A stretch of DNA of 64,000 bases from Escherichia phage vB_EcoS_HZ_ZJUN2, in the sequence record PP216084; one strand, given 5' to 3'. Positions 1 to 9,502 of the stretch are shown piece after piece. The stretch's first letter is position 1; the number at the start of each line of letters is the position of its first letter. Below the pieces are notes generated by a model that did not search any database, was not told where the DNA came from, and saw only the letters and a list, made by a program, of their open reading frames with translations. The position numbers and the translations under genes were made by a program.

Positions 1-190
1 ATTATTCTCATTTAAGAAGTGGAATGATTCTCATTTAAGAAGTGGAATGCGAATGATAATTATTCTCATTTAAGAAGCGGAATGAGAACTATTCAAGAAG
101 TGGAATGAGAACTATTCAAGAAGCGAAATGATTCTCATCCTAGAAAGGGAATGCAAATGATAATGATTCTCATTTAAGAATGGAAGTGAG
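1..190. repeat. Degenerate tandem direct repeats, about 7 copies of a 23-30 bp unit (consensus ttctcatttaagaagtggaatga)
   Basis: Unit reiterated back to back across 1-190; contiguous, no unique spacers. Confidence 0.8.
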
Positions 191-315
191 AAACACTGTT
201 ATTTAAGTTATCCACAGACTTATTAACAGCACGATTTGACTTGACAGAATCCTAGCCATTTTGAGGCGTTATCCACCGACTTATCCACAGCTTATTCTAC
301 TGTATAAATATACAG
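184..315. repeat. Left arm of ~130 bp inverted repeat with three DnaA-box-like 9-mers and a 16 bp palindrome
   Basis: TTATCCACA at 208-216 and 281-289, TTATCCACC at 269-277; palindrome ctgtataaatatacag at 300-315; reverse complement aligns with 3648-3780. Confidence 0.75.
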
Positions 316-514
316 TATTCCTATGCAGTGAATAATTCTAATATAGGCTTAAAACGTCCTGAATCGCATTCTAGCGCGTTTTATTTTGGTGGGGATACTA
401 AAACAAGGGCAAAACTGGAGGAGGCTTAGAAATTAGTTAGCTCGCTAACGATCACACAAGGCGACACGTAACACCCTAATCATTAGCAGGCTAACCATCG
501 CGGGCGCGGTCAAA

Positions 515-538
515 TGAGAATCATTCTCATTTGAGAAT
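515..538. repeat. Interlocked short palindromes (tgagaat-c-attctca and attctca-ttt-gagaat)
   Basis: Direct reading; sequence related to the 1-190 repeat unit. Confidence 0.6.
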
Positions 539-682
539 TGGGGGCGCTCCCTGATAGTTGCGCCCGTGATTATTATAGTAGTGGGCAACCGTTACGCTTT
601 GCCCACTCCCGCCACTCATCTTGCTGTCTAGACTTGCGACGGCGTACTAAAAACCGCTTATACCAGTGATTAAACCATCGTT

Positions 683-886
683 TCATAGATCCCCCTCGGG
701 TAGTCGATGCGTGATCTTCTCCTCTTCCCCGTAGGAATCGACTAAATGCTGATAATAACCATCATGATCATAAATCACCTTATCATACTCACCACGCTCA
801 ACCGCTTGCCGGTTTTCCGGCGTATCGGGCACATAAAAAACGTCAACCATTGTACTGATTTTGGTTACAACAATTTTATTGCTCAT
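683..886 (-). CDS. Hypothetical protein, 67 aa
   Basis: ORF in track; acidic, no recognisable motif; last gene of minus-strand block. Confidence 0.5.
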   Translation of the reverse strand: MSNKIVVTKISTMVDVFYVPDTPENRQAVERGEYDKVIYDHDGYYQHLVDSYGEEEKITHRLPEGDL

Positions 887-996
887 AATAACGCCCTAGT
901 AAATATATTTTTGCCAATAGCGGCGAACGTTATCGCCACCAGCGGAATCATTAGCTGCCTTACTATTACCAACGAAAATATATAATCTCATTAGTA

Positions 997-1158
997 TTAT
1001 TTTCCCCGCATTAATTTATACATAACTAACATCCCACAAAACTGACCTAAAATAGTGCAGACAACAAGTGATAACACAATATTGCCTATGGTGTTATAAG
1101 TAACTACACCAACAATAAGGGATAATGCATACCCTAGCAGGGCAATATAAACAGCCAT
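997..1158 (-). CDS. Small hydrophobic membrane protein, 53 aa (below ORF-track cutoff)
   Basis: Hand translation MAVYIALLGYALSLIVGVVTYNTIGNIVLSLVVCTILGQFCGMLVMYKLMRGK; ATG 10 nt downstream of the stop of 1168-1509; AGGT upstream. Confidence 0.4.
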   Translation of the reverse strand: MAVYIALLGYALSLIVGVVTYNTIGNIVLSLVVCTILGQFCGMLVMYKLMRGK

Positions 1159-1167
1159 ATTATTTAC

Positions 1168-1509
1168 CTATTTTCGAAACGCTGTTTCAATACTATCAGC
1201 CGTGGATTGAATATACGCGCCTTTCATGATCAGGCGCTCGGTGCATATCTTGCGAAAAATATTAATAAAATCATCCTCATTTTCTGCAATTAATGCCTCA
1301 CCCATAACCTGAACGTCGCAAGATGCAAAGGTCAAAAATTGAAATGCTAGTTCACGGGCAACAACCGCATTAATCTTATAATGCGCCTTTCCCTCGTAAA
1401 TATTAACAACGCCCTTATAATCAGGCGAAAGCTGATTTAAGTAGTTTGCTAATAATCCCGGGCGGCAATTAGTAACAAAGCGATTGCCCTCGTAAATGAT
1501 CATTTGCAT
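1168..1509 (-). CDS. Hypothetical protein, 113 aa
   Basis: ORF in track; start ATG overlaps stop of upstream small ORF (ATGCAAATGA). Confidence 0.6.
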   Translation of the reverse strand: MQMIIYEGNRFVTNCRPGLLANYLNQLSPDYKGVVNIYEGKAHYKINAVVARELAFQFLTFASCDVQVMGEALIAENEDDFINIFRKICTERLIMKGAYIQSTADSIETAFRK

Positions 1510-1631
1510 AACCTCCCGATCAGATAGCCTGATAATAACATAAAGATCCCCAACGAAATGGGGTCATTCTTAAATAAGGTGGCGATAAAACCGCCAGCCA
1601 TTGCAAGGAGAACAACAAAAACGCTTTTCAT
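1500..1631 (-). CDS. Small two-helix membrane peptide, 43 aa (below ORF-track cutoff)
   Basis: Hand translation MKSVFVVLLAMAGGFIATLFKNDPISLGIFMLLSGYLIGRLCK; start ATG overlaps TGA stop of 1628-1840 (ATGA coupling). Confidence 0.4.
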   Translation of the reverse strand: MKSVFVVLLAMAGGFIATLFKNDPISLGIFMLLSGYLIGRLCK

Positions 1632-1840
1632 AGTACCCCACGAAACGCAGCGTAAAAGGTGGCAAAATGTTTAACTGTTTCAGCTATCACGTTGCCGCGC
1701 TTATCAAATTTTTTCTCAGTAACACGAAAGGCATTTTTATTACGTGCTACATATTCGATTTTACAGTCTGGACGCTCGAACGTGTTAACGTCCACCAGCT
1801 TAAAGCCTTTGGAACGAGCAAGGGAAACATTACGAATCAT
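1628..1840 (-). CDS. Hypothetical basic protein, 70 aa
   Basis: ORF in track; AAAGGAGAATAA RBS immediately upstream. Confidence 0.55.
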   Translation of the reverse strand: MIRNVSLARSKGFKLVDVNTFERPDCKIEYVARNKNAFRVTEKKFDKRGNVIAETVKHFATFYAAFRGVL

Positions 1841-1842
1841 TT

Positions 1843-1992
1843 TTATTCTCCTTTACTAGTCATGCAGCCCAGCAGATAAGAAAATGCAGCGATACCCGCG
1901 CCGATAATAACCGCGTGAACATCGAAAGCTATTGCAAACAAAGATAAAATAGCGCCCAAGATACCCGCCAGAATAGCTCGAAAAATAACCAT
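1843..1992 (-). CDS. Small membrane protein, 49 aa (below ORF-track cutoff)
   Basis: Hand translation MVIFRAILAGILGAILSLFAIAFDVHAVIIGAGIAAFSYLLGCMTSKGE; AGGAGA RBS upstream; its 3' end holds the RBS of the next gene. Confidence 0.4.
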   Translation of the reverse strand: MVIFRAILAGILGAILSLFAIAFDVHAVIIGAGIAAFSYLLGCMTSKGE

Positions 1993-2039
1993 TTTTATTC
2001 TCCTAGTTAGTGGGGGCGAAAGTAACGCCCCGTTATTAA

Positions 2040-2270
2040 TTACATTAAAACGATTTTGGCGGCTTGTTTTTTGGTGCAGTGTTCCGCTTTCAGGGTATCC
2101 AGCAAAAAGCCCGCCGTTTGCTGATCGATTTGATCATTATCATAAAGCGCCTGAATGGTGGTGTAAGTTTTAGCAATGCCGTATTCTTGCACCATTTCTT
2201 GAATGATCCAGCGATTTGATACCCAGCCTTTTCCAGTGAAAAGAGCGTCAGAAGAAGAAAAAGCAACCAT
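2040..2270 (-). CDS. Hypothetical protein, 76 aa
   Basis: ORF in track; followed on the minus strand by GC hairpin 2013-2031. Confidence 0.55.
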   Translation of the reverse strand: MVAFSSSDALFTGKGWVSNRWIIQEMVQEYGIAKTYTTIQALYDNDQIDQQTAGFLLDTLKAEHCTKKQAAKIVLM

Positions 2271-2331
2271 TATAAGCCTCCAAAATTTTTTGGGAAATTT
2301 TCAACCGTCCTCGAACGGTGTAAAGGCATTA

Positions 2332-2362
2332 TAACAAAAAGGCCGCCATAATCGGCGACCTT
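2332..2362 (-). terminator. Hairpin plus U-run, candidate intrinsic terminator after the 331 aa gene
   Basis: aaggccgcc-ataatc-ggcgacctt stem-loop at 2339-2362 with A-run 2334-2340 on the plus strand (U-run on minus). Confidence 0.45.
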
Positions 2363-2385
2363 TACAAAACTTTACATTAGACTAA

Positions 2386-3381
2386 TTATTGCTCGTTTTC
2401 GGTGTTAGTGGTAAAAGTAGAAATATCAATGCCCTTCACCATTTCATCGATCATTTCAGCAATGTTAAAACTTTGTACCATTTCTAGCATTGCCGCTTCC
2501 ATAGCTGCACCCGCTACCGCTTTCGCCTTCTGGTTACTCGGGGCGTACTGGTCAACCGCTACGCTCAGCAGGTTGGCAATGACTACTCGACCAATCGGCG
2601 TATCAATATAACCTTTAATCATGAACGGTGCTTTTTTAGCCGCTACTTTCGTGATTTGAGTCAATGCAATTTTACCCGCTTCCAGTTTTGCAGCATTTAC
2701 AACGGCGGACTTATTAGCGGCAACGATATTAGCGATCTTGGTCATAGTATTTTTTCCTTTGTTTTCAGTGATTTGAGTGTTAACGCTTTGAGTGTTAGAA
2801 TTTACAGTATGTTTTTCTATATTGTCAATAGGCTGATCCTCATCTTTCCAGAAAGAAAAGCCCGCTCTTTCGATATCCCCATCATATACGTATGGGTATA
2901 CTTCCGACGGTAACAAAAAATTGCCATCATCATCAAAGGCCATTACAGCCGCCAGACGATACCCGTCACCGATTGACCGATTCCAGCCAACGGATAAATA
3001 ACGCCAAAATGAATCAAGAAAATTTTCTACATCATAAAGATCCTTATCATAAGGCTCATAATTTTCTATTGAAAAAACTTCTAAGCCCGCCCCCGCATCA
3101 TAGGCTTTTACTGTGCTACCTTTTACAATTATAAAATCAGTATCCGGCCCCCTACTAGTAAGCAAGTGATTATCTCGATTATATAAGATAATCGTTGCCC
3201 CTTGCTTATATAAGGGTAGAAAGCTACGCATATCATAGGCGTCGAAATCATCAAAAAAATTCTGGTGAATATCTTCGACTTTGTTAACAAAGTGCTTAAT
3301 GCTGGTTGTTCTGCTACCGTCCAGCAGGTTGCGCAGCGCACCTTTTAAGACGGTTGCGTTATCTGGTTTATATAGCCTCAT
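2386..3381 (-). CDS. Hypothetical two-domain protein, 331 aa, pre-early-like region
   Basis: Long ORF with even codon usage; N-terminal acidic domain and C-terminal Ala/Lys-rich helical domain; no motif recognised. Confidence 0.7.
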   Translation of the reverse strand: MRLYKPDNATVLKGALRNLLDGSRTTSIKHFVNKVEDIHQNFFDDFDAYDMRSFLPLYKQGATIILYNRDNHLLTSRGPDTDFIIVKGSTVKAYDAGAGLEVFSIENYEPYDKDLYDVENFLDSFWRYLSVGWNRSIGDGYRLAAVMAFDDDGNFLLPSEVYPYVYDGDIERAGFSFWKDEDQPIDNIEKHTVNSNTQSVNTQITENKGKNTMTKIANIVAANKSAVVNAAKLEAGKIALTQITKVAAKKAPFMIKGYIDTPIGRVVIANLLSVAVDQYAPSNQKAKAVAGAAMEAAMLEMVQSFNIAEMIDEMVKGIDISTFTTNTENEQ

Positions 3382-3647
3382 TTGTTGGCCTCCCTCGTTA
3401 ATCGGTAGAAGAATGATAAAGGTAATTTTCTAGCATAGGCAAATATTATTTTACCTTTTTATTTTCCTTGCCTAACACCTAGTTTTATGCTAACCGCGCA
3501 GCGGTATAGTAAAGAGCAAAACACGGCGGAGCCACCAGGTCGACGCGTTGAGGCTTTACTTTAATATTACCTCACTGCGTTTAGCTCGTTAGAAAGCGTT
3601 TTAGGCGGCCTAAAATTGATTGCAGTCGTTAACACTGTCTTTCTACC

Positions 3648-3780
3648 CTGTATATTTATACAGTAGGATAACCTGTGGATAAGTCTGTGTAAAAGCCCTC
3701 ATATCGCCGCCTATCGTGTCAAATTATTTTGTGCTGTGGATAACGTTGTGGATAACTTAAATGATAGTGGTTCTCACTTA
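3648..3780. repeat. Right arm of the inverted repeat with three DnaA-box 9-mers (reverse orientation) and palindrome
   Basis: TGTGGATAA at 3674-3682, 3735-3743, 3747-3755; palindrome ctgtatatttatacag at 3648-3663; matches reverse complement of 184-315 with a central indel. Confidence 0.75.
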
Positions 3781-3950
3781 GGCCGATAGTTTCTTATAGT
3801 TATTATTTTTATAGTGATGATTTCTTATAGTTATTATTATAACGGTGATGATTTCTTATAGTTATTATTATATTGGTGATTATTTTTATAGTTATTATTT
3901 TTATAGTTATTATTTCTCATTAATTTATAATTATATTATATATCATGAAA
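3781..3950. repeat. AT-rich tandem repeat array (unit about 24 bp, gatgatttcttatagttattatt)
   Basis: At least 5 head-to-tail copies visible; the plus-strand ORF 3845-4048 is a translation artefact of this array. Confidence 0.75.
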
Positions 3951-4290
3951 TAGTTAGTTGGCTAATAAGATTTTCCGGGATTAATAGTCTGCTAATAATT
4001 CAGACCGTTACAATCCACCAGCATGATTATCATCCTAGCAATTATTAGTCTGCTATCTTTCTAATACACAACAACAAATAAAAGTCAAATATTTTATTTA
4101 ATAAATTAACGCAACGCCCCTCGATTTTTAAAAGTCAAGACCTTTTCCAACTATTTTTCAATTTTGCGTTTGTTAACGATTTGTTAAGTCGAAAATAGGC
4201 GGCCTAAAACGCGCCAGAACGCAATAAAGTTTTTAGCTATCCCATCATAAGGGATCACGCCGTTTATCGCTGCCACGAGCTTTTTAGATT

Positions 4291-4318
4291 TTGTCAAGTA
4301 GGGCAAGGCAAATATAAA
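4291..4318 (+). promoter_or_regulatory. Sigma70-like promoter candidate TTGTCA-16-TATAAA
   Basis: Hexamers at 4291-4296 and 4313-4318 in an AT-rich divergent control region. Confidence 0.35.
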
Positions 4319-4584
4319 TGAAAAATTTACTTGCCTATCTGCTATGTTTTGTGGTATTCGCGCGCCCGTTTCCTTTAAACTCGGGCAATCGCCGGACGTG
4401 TTGCCTTCTTTACATTTCTTTACAAAAATAAGGTTGCTCCTTTTTCGTTGTTTGTTATTATTTATCTCGTAGGGCGGCAATGACGAACTACACGGCGGGA
4501 AGTTTACCGCCGCGCTCTTTAAAAATTGGGTATATCTTAAAGCCTATCGGCGGTAAACTTATTACATTATAAGGAATCGACGAT

Positions 4585-4788
4585 ATGAAACAAACTTTAT
4601 TGATCACTGGTAAACCTATTAAGGCACTGGACAGCAGAACAAAAAATTTGTTGACAGTAGCGCAAAGATCGGTAAAATATCGATTTAAGCAGTACAAGAA
4701 AGGCCGCCAGCAAGGTTTGGAAATGATCTGGCGAAATATTATGATCGACCTGAAGGAAAATCATAAAAAACTGCAAAAAACAGCTTGA
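4585..4788 (+). CDS. Hypothetical small basic protein, 67 aa
   Basis: AAGGAA 8 nt upstream of ATG; Lys/Arg-rich; overlapped by antisense ORFs judged spurious. Confidence 0.35.
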   Translation: MKQTLLITGKPIKALDSRTKNLLTVAQRSVKYRFKQYKKGRQQGLEMIWRNIMIDLKENHKKLQKTA

Positions 4789-5017
4789 CACCATAGCCGA
4801 TAGGCTTTAAGATGTACCCAGTTCGATAAGAGCGATAACTTGATAAAATCTGACGGCCGGTACTTGCCATAATGTGCCCCGCCCCCTAACTGGGATATAG
4901 CGGCCCGCGTGGAGTTCCTTAAATTGATTTTATAATGGCGAGTGGATTTTTTCTTATTATCTGCTAGAAAGTAGCAGATAATGCGGAACAATCCACAAAT
5001 AACTTGGAGTTTATACC

Positions 5018-5269
5018 ATGAAAAACGTTATTAATGCGCCGAAAGTTGGTCAATCCGTTTTTATTCCTTTCGTTACTAAAACGGACGAATTAACCGGAAA
5101 AGCCGAACGTATTAAAGGCGCGGCGCTCATGCCGTTCGATACAATCGATGCGGTATACGCTGAAAATGAGCGCAGTAACAACGGAAAAACCGTTTTTAGC
5201 GTTCGCGTTAAATCTGGCGACGTTGTAAAGGTTGTTCAACGCAACGAAAAATGGGAAGCTGTATTATAA
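5018..5269 (+). CDS. Hypothetical pre-early protein, 83 aa
   Basis: Conserved initiation context cttGGAGtttatacc-ATG; followed by hairpin 5285-5310. Confidence 0.5.
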   Translation: MKNVINAPKVGQSVFIPFVTKTDELTGKAERIKGAALMPFDTIDAVYAENERSNNGKTVFSVRVKSGDVVKVVQRNEKWEAVL

Positions 5270-5284
5270 ATTAGTGTTAACTTT

Positions 5285-5310
5285 ATATGCCCCGAACTAC
5301 TGGGGCATAT
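5285..5310 (+). terminator. GC-rich palindromic hairpin after a pre-early cassette
   Basis: atatgcccc-gaactac-tggggcatat. Confidence 0.4.
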
Positions 5311-5370
5311 AACGATTAACATTATGTTAATCATTTAATCCCTTAAATTAAATTAATTGGAGTTTATATC

Positions 5371-5787
5371 ATGACTAACGTTAAAACCGAAAAAGCCGCA
5401 AAATTTTCTTGGAATGAAGAAAACACTCAGCAGGCTGTTACCATGTATCAGCAGTTAATCAACGAAAACGGGCTAGAATTCGCAAATAGCGACGGCTTGA
5501 AAGAGATCGCAAAGGCAGTAGGCGCGGCTTCTCCCGTATCCGTTCGGTCAAAATTGACCAGCGCGAAAGCCTATCAGAAAAGCGACAAGCCGCGCAAAGT
5601 TGGCGGCGGTAGTTCAATCCGCAAGGCTCATTATGTGCGAGTGATTGCAAAACATGCCATCGATTCCGGCATTATCAAGGACGCCGATGATCTGGCAAGC
5701 CTTGAAAGCGCGAAATTAGAAACGTTGGACGTCGTGGCGCAACTATTGGGCGTTGCCGATGAAGTAAAACAAGCCGCAGGCGAATAA
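5371..5787 (+). CDS. Putative DNA-binding protein, 138 aa (possible A2-like candidate)
   Basis: Conserved RBS context; carries the motif EIAKAVGAASPVSVRSKLTSAKAY also seen in 52881-53648 and 57438-57848; size fits a ~15 kDa pre-early protein. Confidence 0.5.
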   Translation: MTNVKTEKAAKFSWNEENTQQAVTMYQQLINENGLEFANSDGLKEIAKAVGAASPVSVRSKLTSAKAYQKSDKPRKVGGGSSIRKAHYVRVIAKHAIDSGIIKDADDLASLESAKLETLDVVAQLLGVADEVKQAAGE

Positions 5788-5794
5788 ATTTAAT

Positions 5795-5816
5795 TAGCGG
5801 GGAATACTCCCCGCTA
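5795..5816 (+). terminator. GC-rich palindromic hairpin after a pre-early cassette
   Basis: tagcgggg-aatact-ccccgcta. Confidence 0.4.
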
Positions 5817-5844
5817 TAATTTCCCTTTAATTGGAGTTATTAAA

Positions 5845-6042
5845 ATGATTTTCTTTCCTACTGAATCGCTCATTCTAGGCTTATTTATTATGGCGGCCTC
5901 GCTATTGTTCGCATATTTTCAAAATGACTTAGATTCATATTATTTTAAACGCAAATCTAAGTTAGCAAAGCGGTTAGGTCTGATTTGTTTTATTGCCGCC
6001 GTTGTTTGTGGTGTTAGTTCTAGCCTGATGCCTATTAGTTGA
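5845..6042 (+). CDS. Small membrane protein, 65 aa, two predicted TM helices
   Basis: Conserved RBS context ccctttaattGGAGtt; hydrophobic segments LILGLFIMAASLLFAY and LGLICFIAAVVCGV. Confidence 0.45.
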   Translation: MIFFPTESLILGLFIMAASLLFAYFQNDLDSYYFKRKSKLAKRLGLICFIAAVVCGVSSSLMPIS

Positions 6043-8356: not shown

Positions 8357-9091
8357 ATGAATCAAGTTAAAACGAATATTACCCGTAATTTTCCGCATGT
8401 TTCCCGCGTCATGATTTGGGATCTTGATGGCACTATCGTTAATTCATTCCATCGCGTAGCGCCTTGCTTTGATAGTGAGGGTAATCTAGATTTAAATAAG
8501 TATAAAAATGAGGCGTGCAAACATGATTTAATAATGCAAGATACACTCCTACCGCTTGTTACCTATATGCGCCAATGTATGAATGATGTTAATACGTTAA
8601 ACATTATTTGCACCGCTCGATTAATGAGCAAGTCGGACTATTATTATTTGCGCAAACAAGGATTGCGCGGGCGTGGGGATAGTAATATCCGTGTATTTTC
8701 CCGCGATACACTGCACAAATATTTTGAAGCTGATAAGGTTAGCGAAATATACCACAGCAAGGACGCAGTTTATAAAAGCTACTACTTTGAGTTATTTAAG
8801 CAGTTATATCCGAACGCTGATTTCACGATGATCGACGACCATAAAGGAGTATTGGCGGCGGCGGCATCATATGGATTTAAAACTCTGGACGCGCAAGCCG
8901 TTAATGATATTCTATCGATTGGGGTCACATTGATAGGTGAAACCTTTATCGACGAATCTCTTGAGGATGATAATGATTATCAGTTCCTAGCAGATCGCTT
9001 GCAATTATGTTGGGAAAGTATGACAGAAGAAGAACGCGCAGAATATAGTTGCAGCCCGCAACAATATATTGAGAAATTAAAAGTTGCGTAA
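8357..9091 (+). CDS. dmp: HAD-superfamily phosphatase, 244 aa, probable 5'-deoxyribonucleotidase (Dmp-like)
   Basis: Start set to ATG at 8357 after GGAGAACG RBS; HAD motif I DLDGT, motif II CTAR, C-terminal acidic DD; pre-early location. Confidence 0.5.
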   Translation: MNQVKTNITRNFPHVSRVMIWDLDGTIVNSFHRVAPCFDSEGNLDLNKYKNEACKHDLIMQDTLLPLVTYMRQCMNDVNTLNIICTARLMSKSDYYYLRKQGLRGRGDSNIRVFSRDTLHKYFEADKVSEIYHSKDAVYKSYYFELFKQLYPNADFTMIDDHKGVLAAAASYGFKTLDAQAVNDILSIGVTLIGETFIDESLEDDNDYQFLADRLQLCWESMTEEERAEYSCSPQQYIEKLKVA

Positions 9092-9145: not shown

Positions 9146-9256
9146 AGTTAGCATGGTAATAGTAACGGGGGTGGCGGTTAGCAGACTAAGTATTCTCCCC
9201 CAACCCACTGCACCCACCCACGCGTACGTAATCCAAAGAATTTGGCAAAAGTCAAA

Positions 9257-9502
9257 TTAGTGCATAGAATGGTCATCAAACCTGTGTTCTGGTCTAAACT
9301 CACGGAATCTCTTCCGCGACGCCCGAGAACCATCATTCCACTCCAGCTCAAACTCCGCACGTTTCTCATCGAACTTCCGCTCCCTTTCCGCAATCTCCCG
9401 CGATACTTCCGCAATATATTTACGATGCCTGTCGATAGCCGCAGTCATTCCGAAAACTCCCGCGAGTATCCCGGTAATAAAAGCAATTACAATACTAAAC
9501 AT
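9257..9502 (-). CDS. Hypothetical membrane-anchored protein, 81 aa
   Basis: N-terminal TM helix then charged coiled segment; same strand as llp; overlapped by plus-strand ORF judged less likely. Confidence 0.4.
   Translation of the reverse strand: MFSIVIAFITGILAGVFGMTAAIDRHRKYIAEVSREIAERERKFDEKRAEFELEWNDGSRASRKRFREFRPEHRFDDHSMH

Follow-up and report, generated by a model that had tools for sequence, protein, structure and literature searches.

The pre-early genes of phage T5 take over the host within minutes, and knowing which tiny ORFs are genuine helps to define this gene set. The block considered here, T5.011–T5.017 (left terminal repeat, NC_005859 6495-9157), has already been partly dissected, with 015 being a nickase, 011 and 013 reported as toxic, and a deletion of the region proving viable. 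T5.015 is an Ung-dependent AP-site nickase, for which the inactive mutant carries the substitutions K85A,K94A,K111A (Mahata et al. 2021, PNAS, PMC8201957). The 011, 013 and 015 products of T5 are toxic in E. coli (bioRxiv 10.64898/2026.04.02.716235), with 011 additionally disturbing the nucleoid (bioRxiv 10.64898/2026.04.02.716235; PMC8201957). Gp013 of T5, which has two transmembrane (TM) domains, is both toxic and lytic upon ectopic expression (Annor et al., bioRxiv 10.64898/2026.04.02.716235), contrary to Mahata et al. 2021 (PMC8201957), where 013 was non-toxic; the reported toxicity concerns the long allele found in T5 only. The toxicity screen put forward in an earlier sequence-only reading of the present locus has, in this way, already been performed on the T5 orthologues (bioRxiv 10.64898/2026.04.02.716235). 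A T5 mutant lacking hegG-017 is viable, producing plaques that are only smaller, and any role of micro-genes within this region is therefore accessory.

The window analysed is a stretch of 64,000 nt from Escherichia phage vB_EcoS_HZ_ZJUN2 (PP216084), and its minus-strand block at 683-3381 corresponds to T5.011–T5.017, the rightward pre-early transcription region of first-step-transfer (FST) DNA in Tequintavirus. Megablast comparisons return Tequintavirus genomes with 88-93 % identity to the window, including the terminal repeats, and the matching stretch is annotated as left TR, DTR or FST in Spc35, T5 and the Kenya phages. The block lies in the long terminal repeat, within a region running from the DnaA-box/repeat area to the injection-stop repeats, and has A2, A1 and dmp adjoining; A2 and a T5.005 homologue occupy 5371-6042 on the plus strand, the window has five perfect DnaA boxes, every one of them flanking the block, and tandem repeats of the iss type are found at positions 1-131. 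The sequence-only reading, which had proposed a compact pre-early gene block in a T5-like phage, is thus borne out on both counts, as are the minus-strand coordinates that it gave for all ORFs. Its view of the block as a single operon holds for the compact arrangement, but not for transcription throughout, as a strong intrinsic terminator after 011 (2338-2363) interrupts the unit; at the same time the operon is larger than first described, with two more conserved micro-ORFs at 896-991 and 573-686. Gene order, strand and position are shared with T5, as is the terminator after 011, and protein identities to T5 are 79 % for 011, 97 % for 012, 65 % for 013, 98.6 % for 014, 90 % for 015 and 91 % for 017. 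The window phage differs from T5 in having two extra micro-genes, of 43 aa at the 014/015 junction and of 53 aa after 015, and in not having T5.016.

The first of three hydrophobic micro-genes (1843-1992, minus strand) encodes 49 aa and is the orthologue of T5.013 in its short allelic form. It matches PHROG 5607 over residues 1-49 of a 49-position profile (E=1.3e-31) and lies between 012 and 014, sharing with T5 gp013 the same two hydrophobic helices, the C-terminal KGE tail and synteny. Two TM domains are annotated for 013 in T5 and its relatives, and the 49-aa product (GRAVY 1.63) likewise displays two hydrophobic segments by hydropathy analysis, as opposed to a dedicated TM predictor. Two length alleles of 013 exist, one of 49 aa and one of 58-62 aa with a loop insertion; T5 gp013 is of the long type, with an insertion of 10-11 aa that the window phage does not have. 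Amongst 20 related loci, the set used for all conservation counts herein, 013 was detected in 18, always at the same position, and is intact in 17 of these carriers, the tblastn alignment to 3sent1 containing an in-frame stop, for which reason that match was excluded from the dN/dS set. The gene has its own strong Shine–Dalgarno (SD) sequence, AGGAG, at a spacing of 7 nt, its 3′ end holds the SD of 014 (gap of 2 nt), and the Bas33 homologue is transcribed at the level of its neighbours by RNA-seq.

The second (1500-1631, minus strand) encodes a 43-aa predicted two-TM hairpin (GRAVY 1.27, two hydrophobic segments) at the 014/015 junction. It belongs to PHROG 19184 by profile match (E=2.6e-27), motif and location, alongside AKFV33 orf014, SPC35_0013 and bas33_0173, which occupy the same junction with 85-95 % identity; C-terminal tails vary within this family, giving lengths of 41-47 aa, and the depositors of AKFV33 orf014 had noted ‘2 transmembrane domains’ in 2012. 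Homologues were found by tblastn in 159 phage records with identities down to 51 %, the motif GGFxATxFKxDP...GYLxGRL being invariant. The ORF is present in 13 of the 20 loci (intact in 13/13) and missing from T5. Its start shares an ATGA overlap with the stop of 014, and its stop shares another with the conserved start of 015 (1503). The RNA-seq count for the Bas33 homologue is near zero, which we assume to reflect read assignment for an overlapping feature of 126 nt.

The third (997-1158, minus strand) is a 53-aa predicted two-TM hairpin (GRAVY 1.45, two hydrophobic segments) at the 015/017 junction, 100 % identical to bas33_0171, which is transcribed at its neighbours' level by RNA-seq. In T5, x31 and T5.016 stand at this junction in its place. 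The ORF was detected in 7 of the 20 loci, intact in all seven, and has homologues at 80-100 % identity in 39 phage records; no family was found for its product in PHROG or Pfam profile searches, and only 7 clusters contain it amongst 5.8e9 proteins. It has a weak SD (AGG) and overlaps neither neighbour, the gaps being 9 and 5 nt. The translational coupling previously claimed for all three genes consequently applies to the 43-aa ORF through its overlaps and to the 49-aa ORF through SD sharing with 014, but not to the 53-aa ORF.

The three micro-ORFs are real, conserved genes, and purifying selection acts on them in no frame other than the annotated one. With 8-18 distinct sequences per gene, pooled in-frame dN/dS values are 0.17, 0.36 and 0.23 for the 49-, 43- and 53-aa genes, respectively, with zero stops, and the 53-aa family is very narrow and shallow, limiting the power of its value; the two wrong frames yield dN/dS of 0.75-2.2 and 16-59 stops. 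The 0.36 of the 43-aa gene is relatively relaxed. The strong hydrophobicity of the three products, and the two segments in each, were correctly described beforehand, although a GRAVY of ≥ 1.2 occurs in 12 of the window's 95 ORFs of 35-59 aa that start with ATG, where shuffles expect 1.4, so that hydrophobicity alone is not decisive and conservation is. The other nine hydrophobic short ORFs are Leu-rich and located elsewhere in the window, and we presume that they arise from longer genes read in another frame. That the micro-genes had been missed by the ORF track is an artefact of its 60-aa length cut-off, and they cannot be called undescribed: HildyBeyeler/Bas33, JLBYU43, YJin-2024a and ESCO40 annotate all three as CDSs, and two are in PHROGs (5607, 19184). 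The small genes being already catalogued in close relatives, their detection is sound and largely ordinary. What is new here are two cassette slots, two extra ORFs, a modular 011 and an off-by-one nickase label.

With regard to the two extra ORFs, the first (896-991, minus strand) encodes a conserved, non-hydrophobic protein of 31 aa, found in 13 of the 20 loci and annotated in JLBYU43, ESCO40, YJin and phB7. It is present, but unannotated, in T5, and the Sepoy copy displays 71 % identity; dN/dS is 0.29 in the correct frame only, with zero stops. The second (573-686, minus strand) encodes a conserved, very basic protein of 37 aa, begins in an ATGA overlap with the 017 stop, and is preceded by the SD GAGGGGGA. 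It is the last gene before the injection-stop repeats and extends past the left edge (683) previously given to the block. Six of the 20 loci have it intact, T5 amongst them (9153-9267, unannotated), and it is annotated in JLBYU43_19 and 3sent1; its dN/dS is 0.14, again in frame only. Coding evidence is hence firm for five genes of fewer than 60 aa, and the T5 reference leaves two of these unannotated.

Comparison of the loci reveals that the 014/015 and 015/017 junctions are exact cassette slots, with codon-exact boundaries and translational coupling maintained. T5, FFH1 and BB1 have empty slots, and in other phages the slots hold at least seven unrelated families of hydrophobic micro-genes, six of which were counted in 39-228 phage records each, of roughly 520 genomes. 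The 43- and 53-aa genes are accordingly optional cassettes, and 013 is near-universal. Both junctions behave as sites where unrelated membrane micro-proteins are exchanged, and the occupants are candidates for membrane-level conflict between phage and host or between phages.

With a probability of roughly 0.6, the micro-ORFs are genuine translated accessory genes whose products, in the setting of T5.011–T5.017, act as inner-membrane hairpins that perturb the host membrane during takeover. In each protein, two TM helices would be connected by a short loop in the periplasm and followed by a cytoplasmic, cationic C-terminal tail, and the predicted helices bear conserved small-xxx-small/GxxxG packing motifs. 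Insertion into the cytoplasmic membrane would occur within the first minutes of infection, whereupon the proteins may associate with themselves or with membrane proteins of the host, and could then perturb membrane integrity or energetics. Such a membrane attack would form part of host takeover beside the DNA-directed toxins, the 015 nickase and 011. Host-takeover functions, which the sequence-only reading had expected in this block, are indeed documented for T5, in the nickase activity of T5.015 (PMC8201957), the toxicity of 011, 013 and 015, and the lysis caused by 013 (bioRxiv 10.64898/2026.04.02.716235). For the 43- and 53-aa proteins, any activity is putative, and Pfam and further profile searches found no homology between the micro-proteins and any characterised membrane-active family.

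Small early or two-TM membrane proteins are known from other phages, including T4 Imm and HK97 gp15, which act in superinfection exclusion, and the class II holins/pinholins, such as S21-68. These share size class, a two-TM hairpin and small-xxx-small motifs with the micro-proteins, and show no sequence or profile similarity to them. Membership of the class II holins/pinholins was rejected, as the genes reside in a pre-early FST operon and have neither an endolysin nearby nor a Pfam holin match; being pre-early, not late, and without an adjoining endolysin, they do not qualify as holins of a lysis cassette. The superinfection-exclusion type (T4 Imm, HK97 gp15) is compatible with the micro-proteins in architecture and timing, and no homology to it was found.

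It is possible, albeit clearly less probable than membrane perturbation, that the optional micro-proteins (those of 43 and 53 aa, together with the remaining occupants of the slots) do not act in takeover by damaging membranes generally but serve as specificity determinants in conflicts between phages or with host defences, where they could block DNA entry by superinfecting phages, as T4 Imm and HK97 gp15 do, or neutralise membrane-embedded abortive-infection effectors. Presence/absence polymorphism, with slots either empty or variously filled, and the exact insertion boundaries agree with such a role, and accessory genes in an arms race would be expected to turn over in this way; cassette turnover is, however, also seen in morons that are neutral or slightly beneficial. 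In a laboratory host with few defences the phage can dispense with the region, and the region is expressed before the remaining genome enters, a timing that would suit exclusion or counter-defence against membrane effectors. Weighing against this, PHROG, Pfam and further searches revealed no sequence or profile similarity to known exclusion or anti-defence proteins, and the sole tested member, T5.013, lyses cells without a specific phenotype. A broader proposal, to be held more tentatively still, is that the pre-early slots of the Markadamsvirinae might constitute an unrecognised, fast-turnover toolkit of membrane-targeted counter-defence and superinfection-exclusion determinants, deployed before bulk genome entry.

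The idea raised by the sequence-only reading, that the micro-proteins protect second-step-transfer DNA by countering restriction or BREX, is very unlikely. Tequintaviruses presumably express an antirestriction activity from their FST DNA (PMC10644984), and most genes of the block have no assigned function. The distribution of the micro-genes does not, however, match resistance to restriction–modification (R-M), and it is this mismatch that disfavours the role: T5 resists type I, II and III R-M though it has neither the 43- nor the 53-aa gene, whilst Epseptimaviruses, which are sensitive to R-M, possess 013, and several of them the 43-aa gene as well. The products are also hydrophobic membrane hairpins, as opposed to acidic DNA mimics or nuclease/methylase inhibitors. 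Assignment to the Ocr/ArdA-type or other R-M inhibitors was rejected for the same two reasons, the absence of correlation with R-M resistance and the hydrophobic nature of the products.

Most improbable is that the small ORFs are non-functional, as chance hydrophobic frames in spacers or decaying gene remnants. Such a reading can draw on the frequency of short hydrophobic six-frame ORFs in the window (12/95), the weak SD and shallow family of the 53-aa ORF, and the near-zero RNA-seq count of the 43-aa gene's homologue in Bas33, but it is countered by zero stops and a dN/dS well under 1 in the annotated frame alone, by retention of the 43-aa protein to 51 % identity with an invariant motif, by preserved start/stop overlaps with neighbours, and by the location of the micro-ORFs in otherwise empty intergenic gaps. 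An equally slight chance attaches to the hairpins being part of the T5 DNA-transfer machinery, as an inner-membrane channel for second-step transfer with A1 and A2, for although they are predicted inner-membrane proteins made from FST DNA just before that step, and A1 is membrane-associated (10.1101/866236), A1 and A2 alone are needed, T5 without hegG-017 still infects, CRISPRi-ART finds only A1/A2 (and dmp) important, and T5 itself has neither the 43- nor the 53-aa gene.

The larger neighbours, all on the minus strand, are headed by the T5.011 orthologue (2386-3381; 331 aa, PHROG 4263), which belongs to DUF7566 (PF24450, E=3.7e-112), scoring 375.7 bits over residues 2-330 against a gathering cut-off of 27 bits. 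The protein is modular, combining a variable N-terminal part with a conserved, helical C-terminal module (about residues 195-325) that recurs in 681 representative clusters with varied N-termini, HIRAN being present in 3/10. An AF2 model of this C-terminal domain is all-helical (pLDDT 86.4), and a fold search with it returned no informative match. The T5.012 orthologue (2040-2270; 76 aa, PHROG 5145, E=7e-52) has an upstream GGAGG SD and a dN/dS of 0.155, and that of T5.017 (683-886; 67 aa, PHROG 6973, E=1.4e-42) a dN/dS of 0.12.

The T5.014 orthologue (1628-1840; 70 aa) is found in 20/20 loci with a dN/dS of 0.065. RefSeq and PHROG 4227 place the name ‘Ung-dependent endonuclease’ on this family, a label that we reject as an off-by-one annotation error, because the mutated residues K85, K94 and K111 exceed the length of a 70-aa protein. 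They are all kept, in T5 numbering, in the product of 1168-1509 (PHROG 4379; dN/dS 0.07), the orthologue of the 114-aa T5.015. This product has 113 aa when read from the ATG at 1509 and 111 aa when read from the conserved ATG (1503). By orthology this is the predicted Ung-dependent AP-site nickase of the window phage, the biochemistry deriving from T5.015 only. The T5.014/T5.015 mislabel in PHROGs and RefSeq is a propagated error that will misdirect automatic annotation in every T5-like genome.

Upstream of 011, two overlapping, predicted sigma-70-type promoter-like sites (3413-3474, minus strand; 9/12 matches each in a consensus scan) coincide with the place, just upstream of T5.011, where T5 has an annotated promoter. 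The terminator after 011 (2338-2363, minus strand) consists of an 11-bp stem with 6 GC pairs and a T-tail, and is annotated at the same position in T5 and AKFV33. Beyond it, a candidate promoter for the 012-017 unit is predicted at 2297-2324 (minus strand; TTTACA-16-GAAAAT, 9/12 match). A G+C-rich hairpin, GGGGCG-loop-CGCCCC, lies between 012 and 013 (2013-2031, minus strand); it was scored on the plus strand and has no U-tail on the sense strand, and BB1 annotates a terminator at this site.

A megablast search with positions 1–6000 of the window matched 532 phage records at 88–93 % identity, nearly all of them from Tequintavirus or Epseptimavirus, with HildyBeyeler (Bas33 of the BASEL collection) displaying 92.6 % identity over 93 % of the query. 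In the records of Spc35 and T5, this region is part of the left terminal repeat, a feature annotated as comprising first-step-transfer (FST) DNA. The window is oriented in reverse to the T5 reference, and its minus-strand genes at 683–3381 are therefore the rightward pre-early genes T5.011–T5.017. These comprise the orthologues of T5.011 (2386–3381, 331 aa), T5.012 (2040–2270, 76 aa), T5.013 (1843–1992, 49 aa), T5.014 (1628–1840, 70 aa), T5.015 (1168–1509, 113 aa) and T5.017 (683–886, 67 aa), all on the minus strand. Five perfect DnaA boxes (TTATCCACA) occur in the 64 kb window, with 0.67 expected by chance, and all of them flank this block, at 208 and 281 (spanning 208–289) and at 3674, 3735 and 3747 (spanning 3674–3755). 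Tandem repeats adjoin the boxes at 1–131 and 3790–3917 (units of 23/58 nt and 15/31 nt), and boxes and repeats together match what is known from T5 FST DNA, namely its repeat regions and its injection-stop region. A strong intrinsic terminator located 3′ of 011 (2338–2363, minus strand) and a candidate promoter upstream of 012 indicate that the block is probably arranged as two transcription units, rather than as one operon. Between 012 and 013 lies a G+C-rich hairpin (GGGGCG-7 nt-CGCCCC, 2013–2031), which is without a U-tail on the sense strand and may act in RNA stability, processing or attenuation. This hairpin is directly 5′ of the strong 013 Shine–Dalgarno (SD) sequence, and BB1 has an annotated terminator there on the opposite strand.

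The three ORFs of fewer than 60 aa that the sequence-only reading had assigned to this block were all found on the minus strand, at 1843–1992 (49 aa, T5.013), 1500–1631 (43 aa) and 997–1158 (53 aa). Each product has two hydrophobic segments with a short polar loop between them, and the strong hydrophobicity claimed for them is borne out by GRAVY values of 1.63, 1.27 and 1.45, respectively. Hydrophobicity by itself proves no gene: values of at least 1.2 are seen for 12 of the 95 ATG ORFs of 35–59 aa in the window, where shuffles expect 1.4, and the other nine are Leu-rich and located elsewhere in the window, being what we take, unchecked, to be alternative-frame ORFs of longer genes. It is the comparative data that decide. 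Of a panel of 20 homologous loci from both genera, 18 yielded the 49 aa ORF, 13 the 43 aa ORF and 7 the 53 aa ORF, and these are intact in every carrier except 3sent1, whose 49 aa match contains an in-frame stop and was left out of the dN/dS set. Pooled Nei–Gojobori dN/dS values are 0.17 (49 aa), 0.36 (43 aa) and 0.23 (53 aa), with the longer neighbouring genes at 0.06–0.25, whilst the two wrong frames of the same alignments produce values of 0.75–2.2 and 16–59 stop codons. Such frame-specific selection essentially excludes the possibility that the three ORFs are non-coding. Using tblastn, the 43 aa protein is found in 159 phage records at identities down to 51 %, with the family keeping the motif GGFxATxFKxDP...GYLxGRL; the 53 aa protein is narrow in its distribution, with 39 phage records and only seven clusters among 5.8 billion proteins. 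The 49 aa query returned no tblastn matches, probably as a result of low-complexity masking, and its homologues were recovered by an unmasked local blast. With regard to the translational coupling proposed for these genes, this holds for the 43 aa gene, which has an ATGA overlap at each end, and in spirit for the 49 aa gene, which possesses its own AGGAG and harbours the 014 SD inside its last codons; for the 53 aa gene it is weak, with gaps of 9 and 5 nt and only an AGG.

Two further micro-ORFs are present on the minus strand: a hydrophilic example of 31 aa (896–991; dN/dS 0.29, 13 of 20 loci) and a very basic one of 37 aa (573–686; dN/dS 0.14), which has an ATGA overlap with the 017 stop. 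Both are under purifying selection specific to the annotated frame, and belong to the operon. Each is present yet unannotated in the T5 reference, at 8640–8736 (31 aa) and 9153–9267 (37 aa). The 31 aa ORF there overlaps the annotated 5′ end of T5.016, the start of which is therefore probably placed too far upstream; a 64 aa form of T5.016, beginning at 'gttattATGattaca', is more likely.

The genes themselves are already catalogued, and one is already characterised experimentally. All three micro-genes, considered missed by the sequence-only reading, are annotated in HildyBeyeler (bas33_0175, bas33_0173 and bas33_0171), where the 43 aa protein has 88 % and the 53 aa protein 100 % identity to that of the window, as well as in JLBYU43, ESCO40 and YJin-2024a; their absence from the ORF track used for that reading is due solely to its 60 aa cut-off. 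Nor are they undescribed, as T5.013 is noted in the T5 record as one that 'contains two transmembrane domains', and AKFV33 orf014, a homologue of the 43 aa protein, was presented as novel in 2012, with two transmembrane (TM) domains in its annotation. The 49 and 43 aa proteins belong to PHROGs families 5607 and 19184, respectively, and the 53 aa protein has no PHROGs family. The toxicity screen suggested as a follow-up has similarly been run on the T5 orthologues, with toxicity reported for 011 and 015 and, in one of two studies, for 013. When T5.002–T5.017 were cloned one by one, toxicity was reported for 008, 011 and 015, and 015 was shown to bind to Ung and to introduce nicks where this enzyme has created abasic sites (Mahata et al., PMC8201957). 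In a separate study, seven of the pre-early genes were toxic, among them 011, 013 and 015; after 013 expression, some of the cells had shrunk and contained no DNA, in keeping with lysis, an outcome ascribed by the authors to the two TM domains of 013; T5 without hegG–017 was viable with smaller plaques, and T5.016 was present in <15 % of Demerecviridae (Annor et al., bioRxiv 10.64898/2026.04.02.716235). The 013 toxicity data concern only the long form of a gene that has two length alleles, one of 49 aa (the window and most of the panel) and one of 58–62 aa (T5, Spc35, HildyBeyeler, JLBYU43 and 3sent1), the latter carrying a 10–11-residue insertion (QDSYCGLVNTKP) in the loop that joins the two hydrophobic helices. 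In a CRISPRi-ART analysis of T5 fitness genes, A1 and A2 ranked highest. As T5.011–T5.017 within FST DNA, with 011, 013 and 015 reported as toxic, the block is indeed pre-early host-takeover territory; the original observation is confirmed and slightly extended, and its interpretation partly supported. RNA-seq values for Bas33 at 20 min post infection are ~594 for the 53 aa homologue, ~537 for the 49 aa homologue and ~594 for the neighbouring 014, whereas bas33_0173 (126 nt, the 43 aa homologue) has a value of 1.6 between flanking genes of ~325–594 (PMC13250531 supplement). This near-zero value disagrees with both flanking genes of its transcription unit, and our assumption is that it is probably an artefact of assigning reads to so short a feature, which overlaps both neighbours.

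The 014/015 and 015/017 junctions are exact cassette slots, in which hydrophobic micro-genes from at least seven unrelated families are found. At the former, the 015 ATG directly follows the 014 stop in T5, FFH1 and BB1 (...GTGTTATAAAATGGTT...), whilst in the window and ten panel phages these flanks enclose the 43 aa gene, which brings its own stop as well as an SD for 015. A further three micro-genes, hydrophobic but unrelated, occupy this position in TrudiRoth, Sepoy/SB13 and NG_A1, and some phages hold two. The 015/017 junction is empty in FFH1 (8 nt) and elsewhere contains the 31 aa ORF alone, the 53 and 31 aa ORFs, or the 31 aa ORF and T5.016, with other two-TM or C-terminally anchored peptides as further occupants. 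Six of the families were counted among ~520 T5-like records, these being 45 aa MNSWWRK (228 phage records), the 43 aa family (159), 33 aa MRSLY (75), 52 aa MKKFLIAG (43), 41 aa MIQQIK (42) and the 53 aa family (39). No significant relationship among the 49, 43 and 53 aa proteins was detected by hhalign, and they are treated as unrelated families of the same architecture; paralogy was rejected, the best result (P=0.0055) coming from a gapless 43-column alignment of the 49 and 43 aa families. That the slot pattern reflects a membrane-targeted conflict toolkit is a speculative and rather improbable suggestion, and this pattern of unrelated membrane micro-genes is the single feature of the block for which work at the bench might be worthwhile.

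All three ORFs are conserved coding genes at a pre-early position, and their products are two-helix hydrophobic hairpins. The charge pattern points to an N-in/C-in topology, as the loops are neutral or acidic and basic residues are found N-terminally as well as in the tails at the C-terminus (KGE, GRLCK and YKLMRGK). Conserved small-xxx-small/GxxxG motifs within the helices (for example, G9xxxS13xxxG17 and G38xxxG42 in the 53 aa protein, GYLIG in the 43 aa protein) would suit helix–helix association. On the basis of this architecture and the T5 gp013 lysis phenotype, the most economical model is that the micro-proteins insert early into the cytoplasmic membrane and would thereby perturb its integrity or energetics, acting beside the DNA-directed toxins 015 and 011. 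We assign this a probability of about 0.6, with most of the weight on these being real membrane micro-proteins and less on the specific activity. The rapid, exact turnover of the optional cassettes and their dispensability in the laboratory would also fit a role as specificity determinants, either in superinfection exclusion or in neutralising membrane-embedded defence effectors, which we regard as the main alternative, possible if doubtful. As the T5 deletion mutant is viable, the micro-proteins are unlikely to function in second-step DNA transfer. The anti-restriction role initially envisaged is disfavoured, and probably wrong, as T5 is resistant to restriction–modification without the 43 and 53 aa genes, and restriction–modification-sensitive Epseptimaviruses possess 013 and often the 43 aa gene. 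The old 'A3', a ColIb abortive-infection trigger, was rejected as an identity for the micro-proteins, A3 now being equated with A2. When bacterial families of small membrane proteins or type I toxins were sought in NCBIfam and Pfam, only sub-threshold noise resulted.

Within PHROG 4227 and RefSeq, the description 'endonuclease nicking abasic sites generated by host uracil glycosylase Ung' is placed on the 70 aa T5.014 family. The inactive enzyme mutant is, however, K85A,K94A,K111A (Mahata), and the nicking enzyme must therefore be the 114 aa T5.015 and not the 70 aa T5.014; all three lysines are kept in the orthologue from the window (1168–1503). The name sits on the gene next to the correct one, an error now carried by many RefSeq records of T5-like phages.

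The C-terminal ~140 aa of 011 (2389–2814, minus strand) constitute the widespread helical domain of T5.011/DUF7566, with 681 representative clusters, and this module occurs either on its own or joined to diverse N-terminal regions, among them HIRAN DNA-binding domains, whose fusions would predict a role linked to DNA or to the replication fork. An AF2 model of the domain is confident (pLDDT 86.4) and has no informative structural neighbour; that of full-length 011 (mean pLDDT 34.6, from a shallow alignment of 87–94 % identity) was discarded uninterpreted. A third homologue search, using the C-domain profile, recovered the same close T5-like clusters and added none, and sequence searches of 011, 012, 014, 015 and 017 against PDB chains revealed nothing significant. 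Both JLBYU43 and NG_A1 have 011 as two ORFs, one for the N-terminal and one for the C-terminal part, and in JLBYU43 the gene is annotated, probably spuriously, as an adenine methyltransferase.
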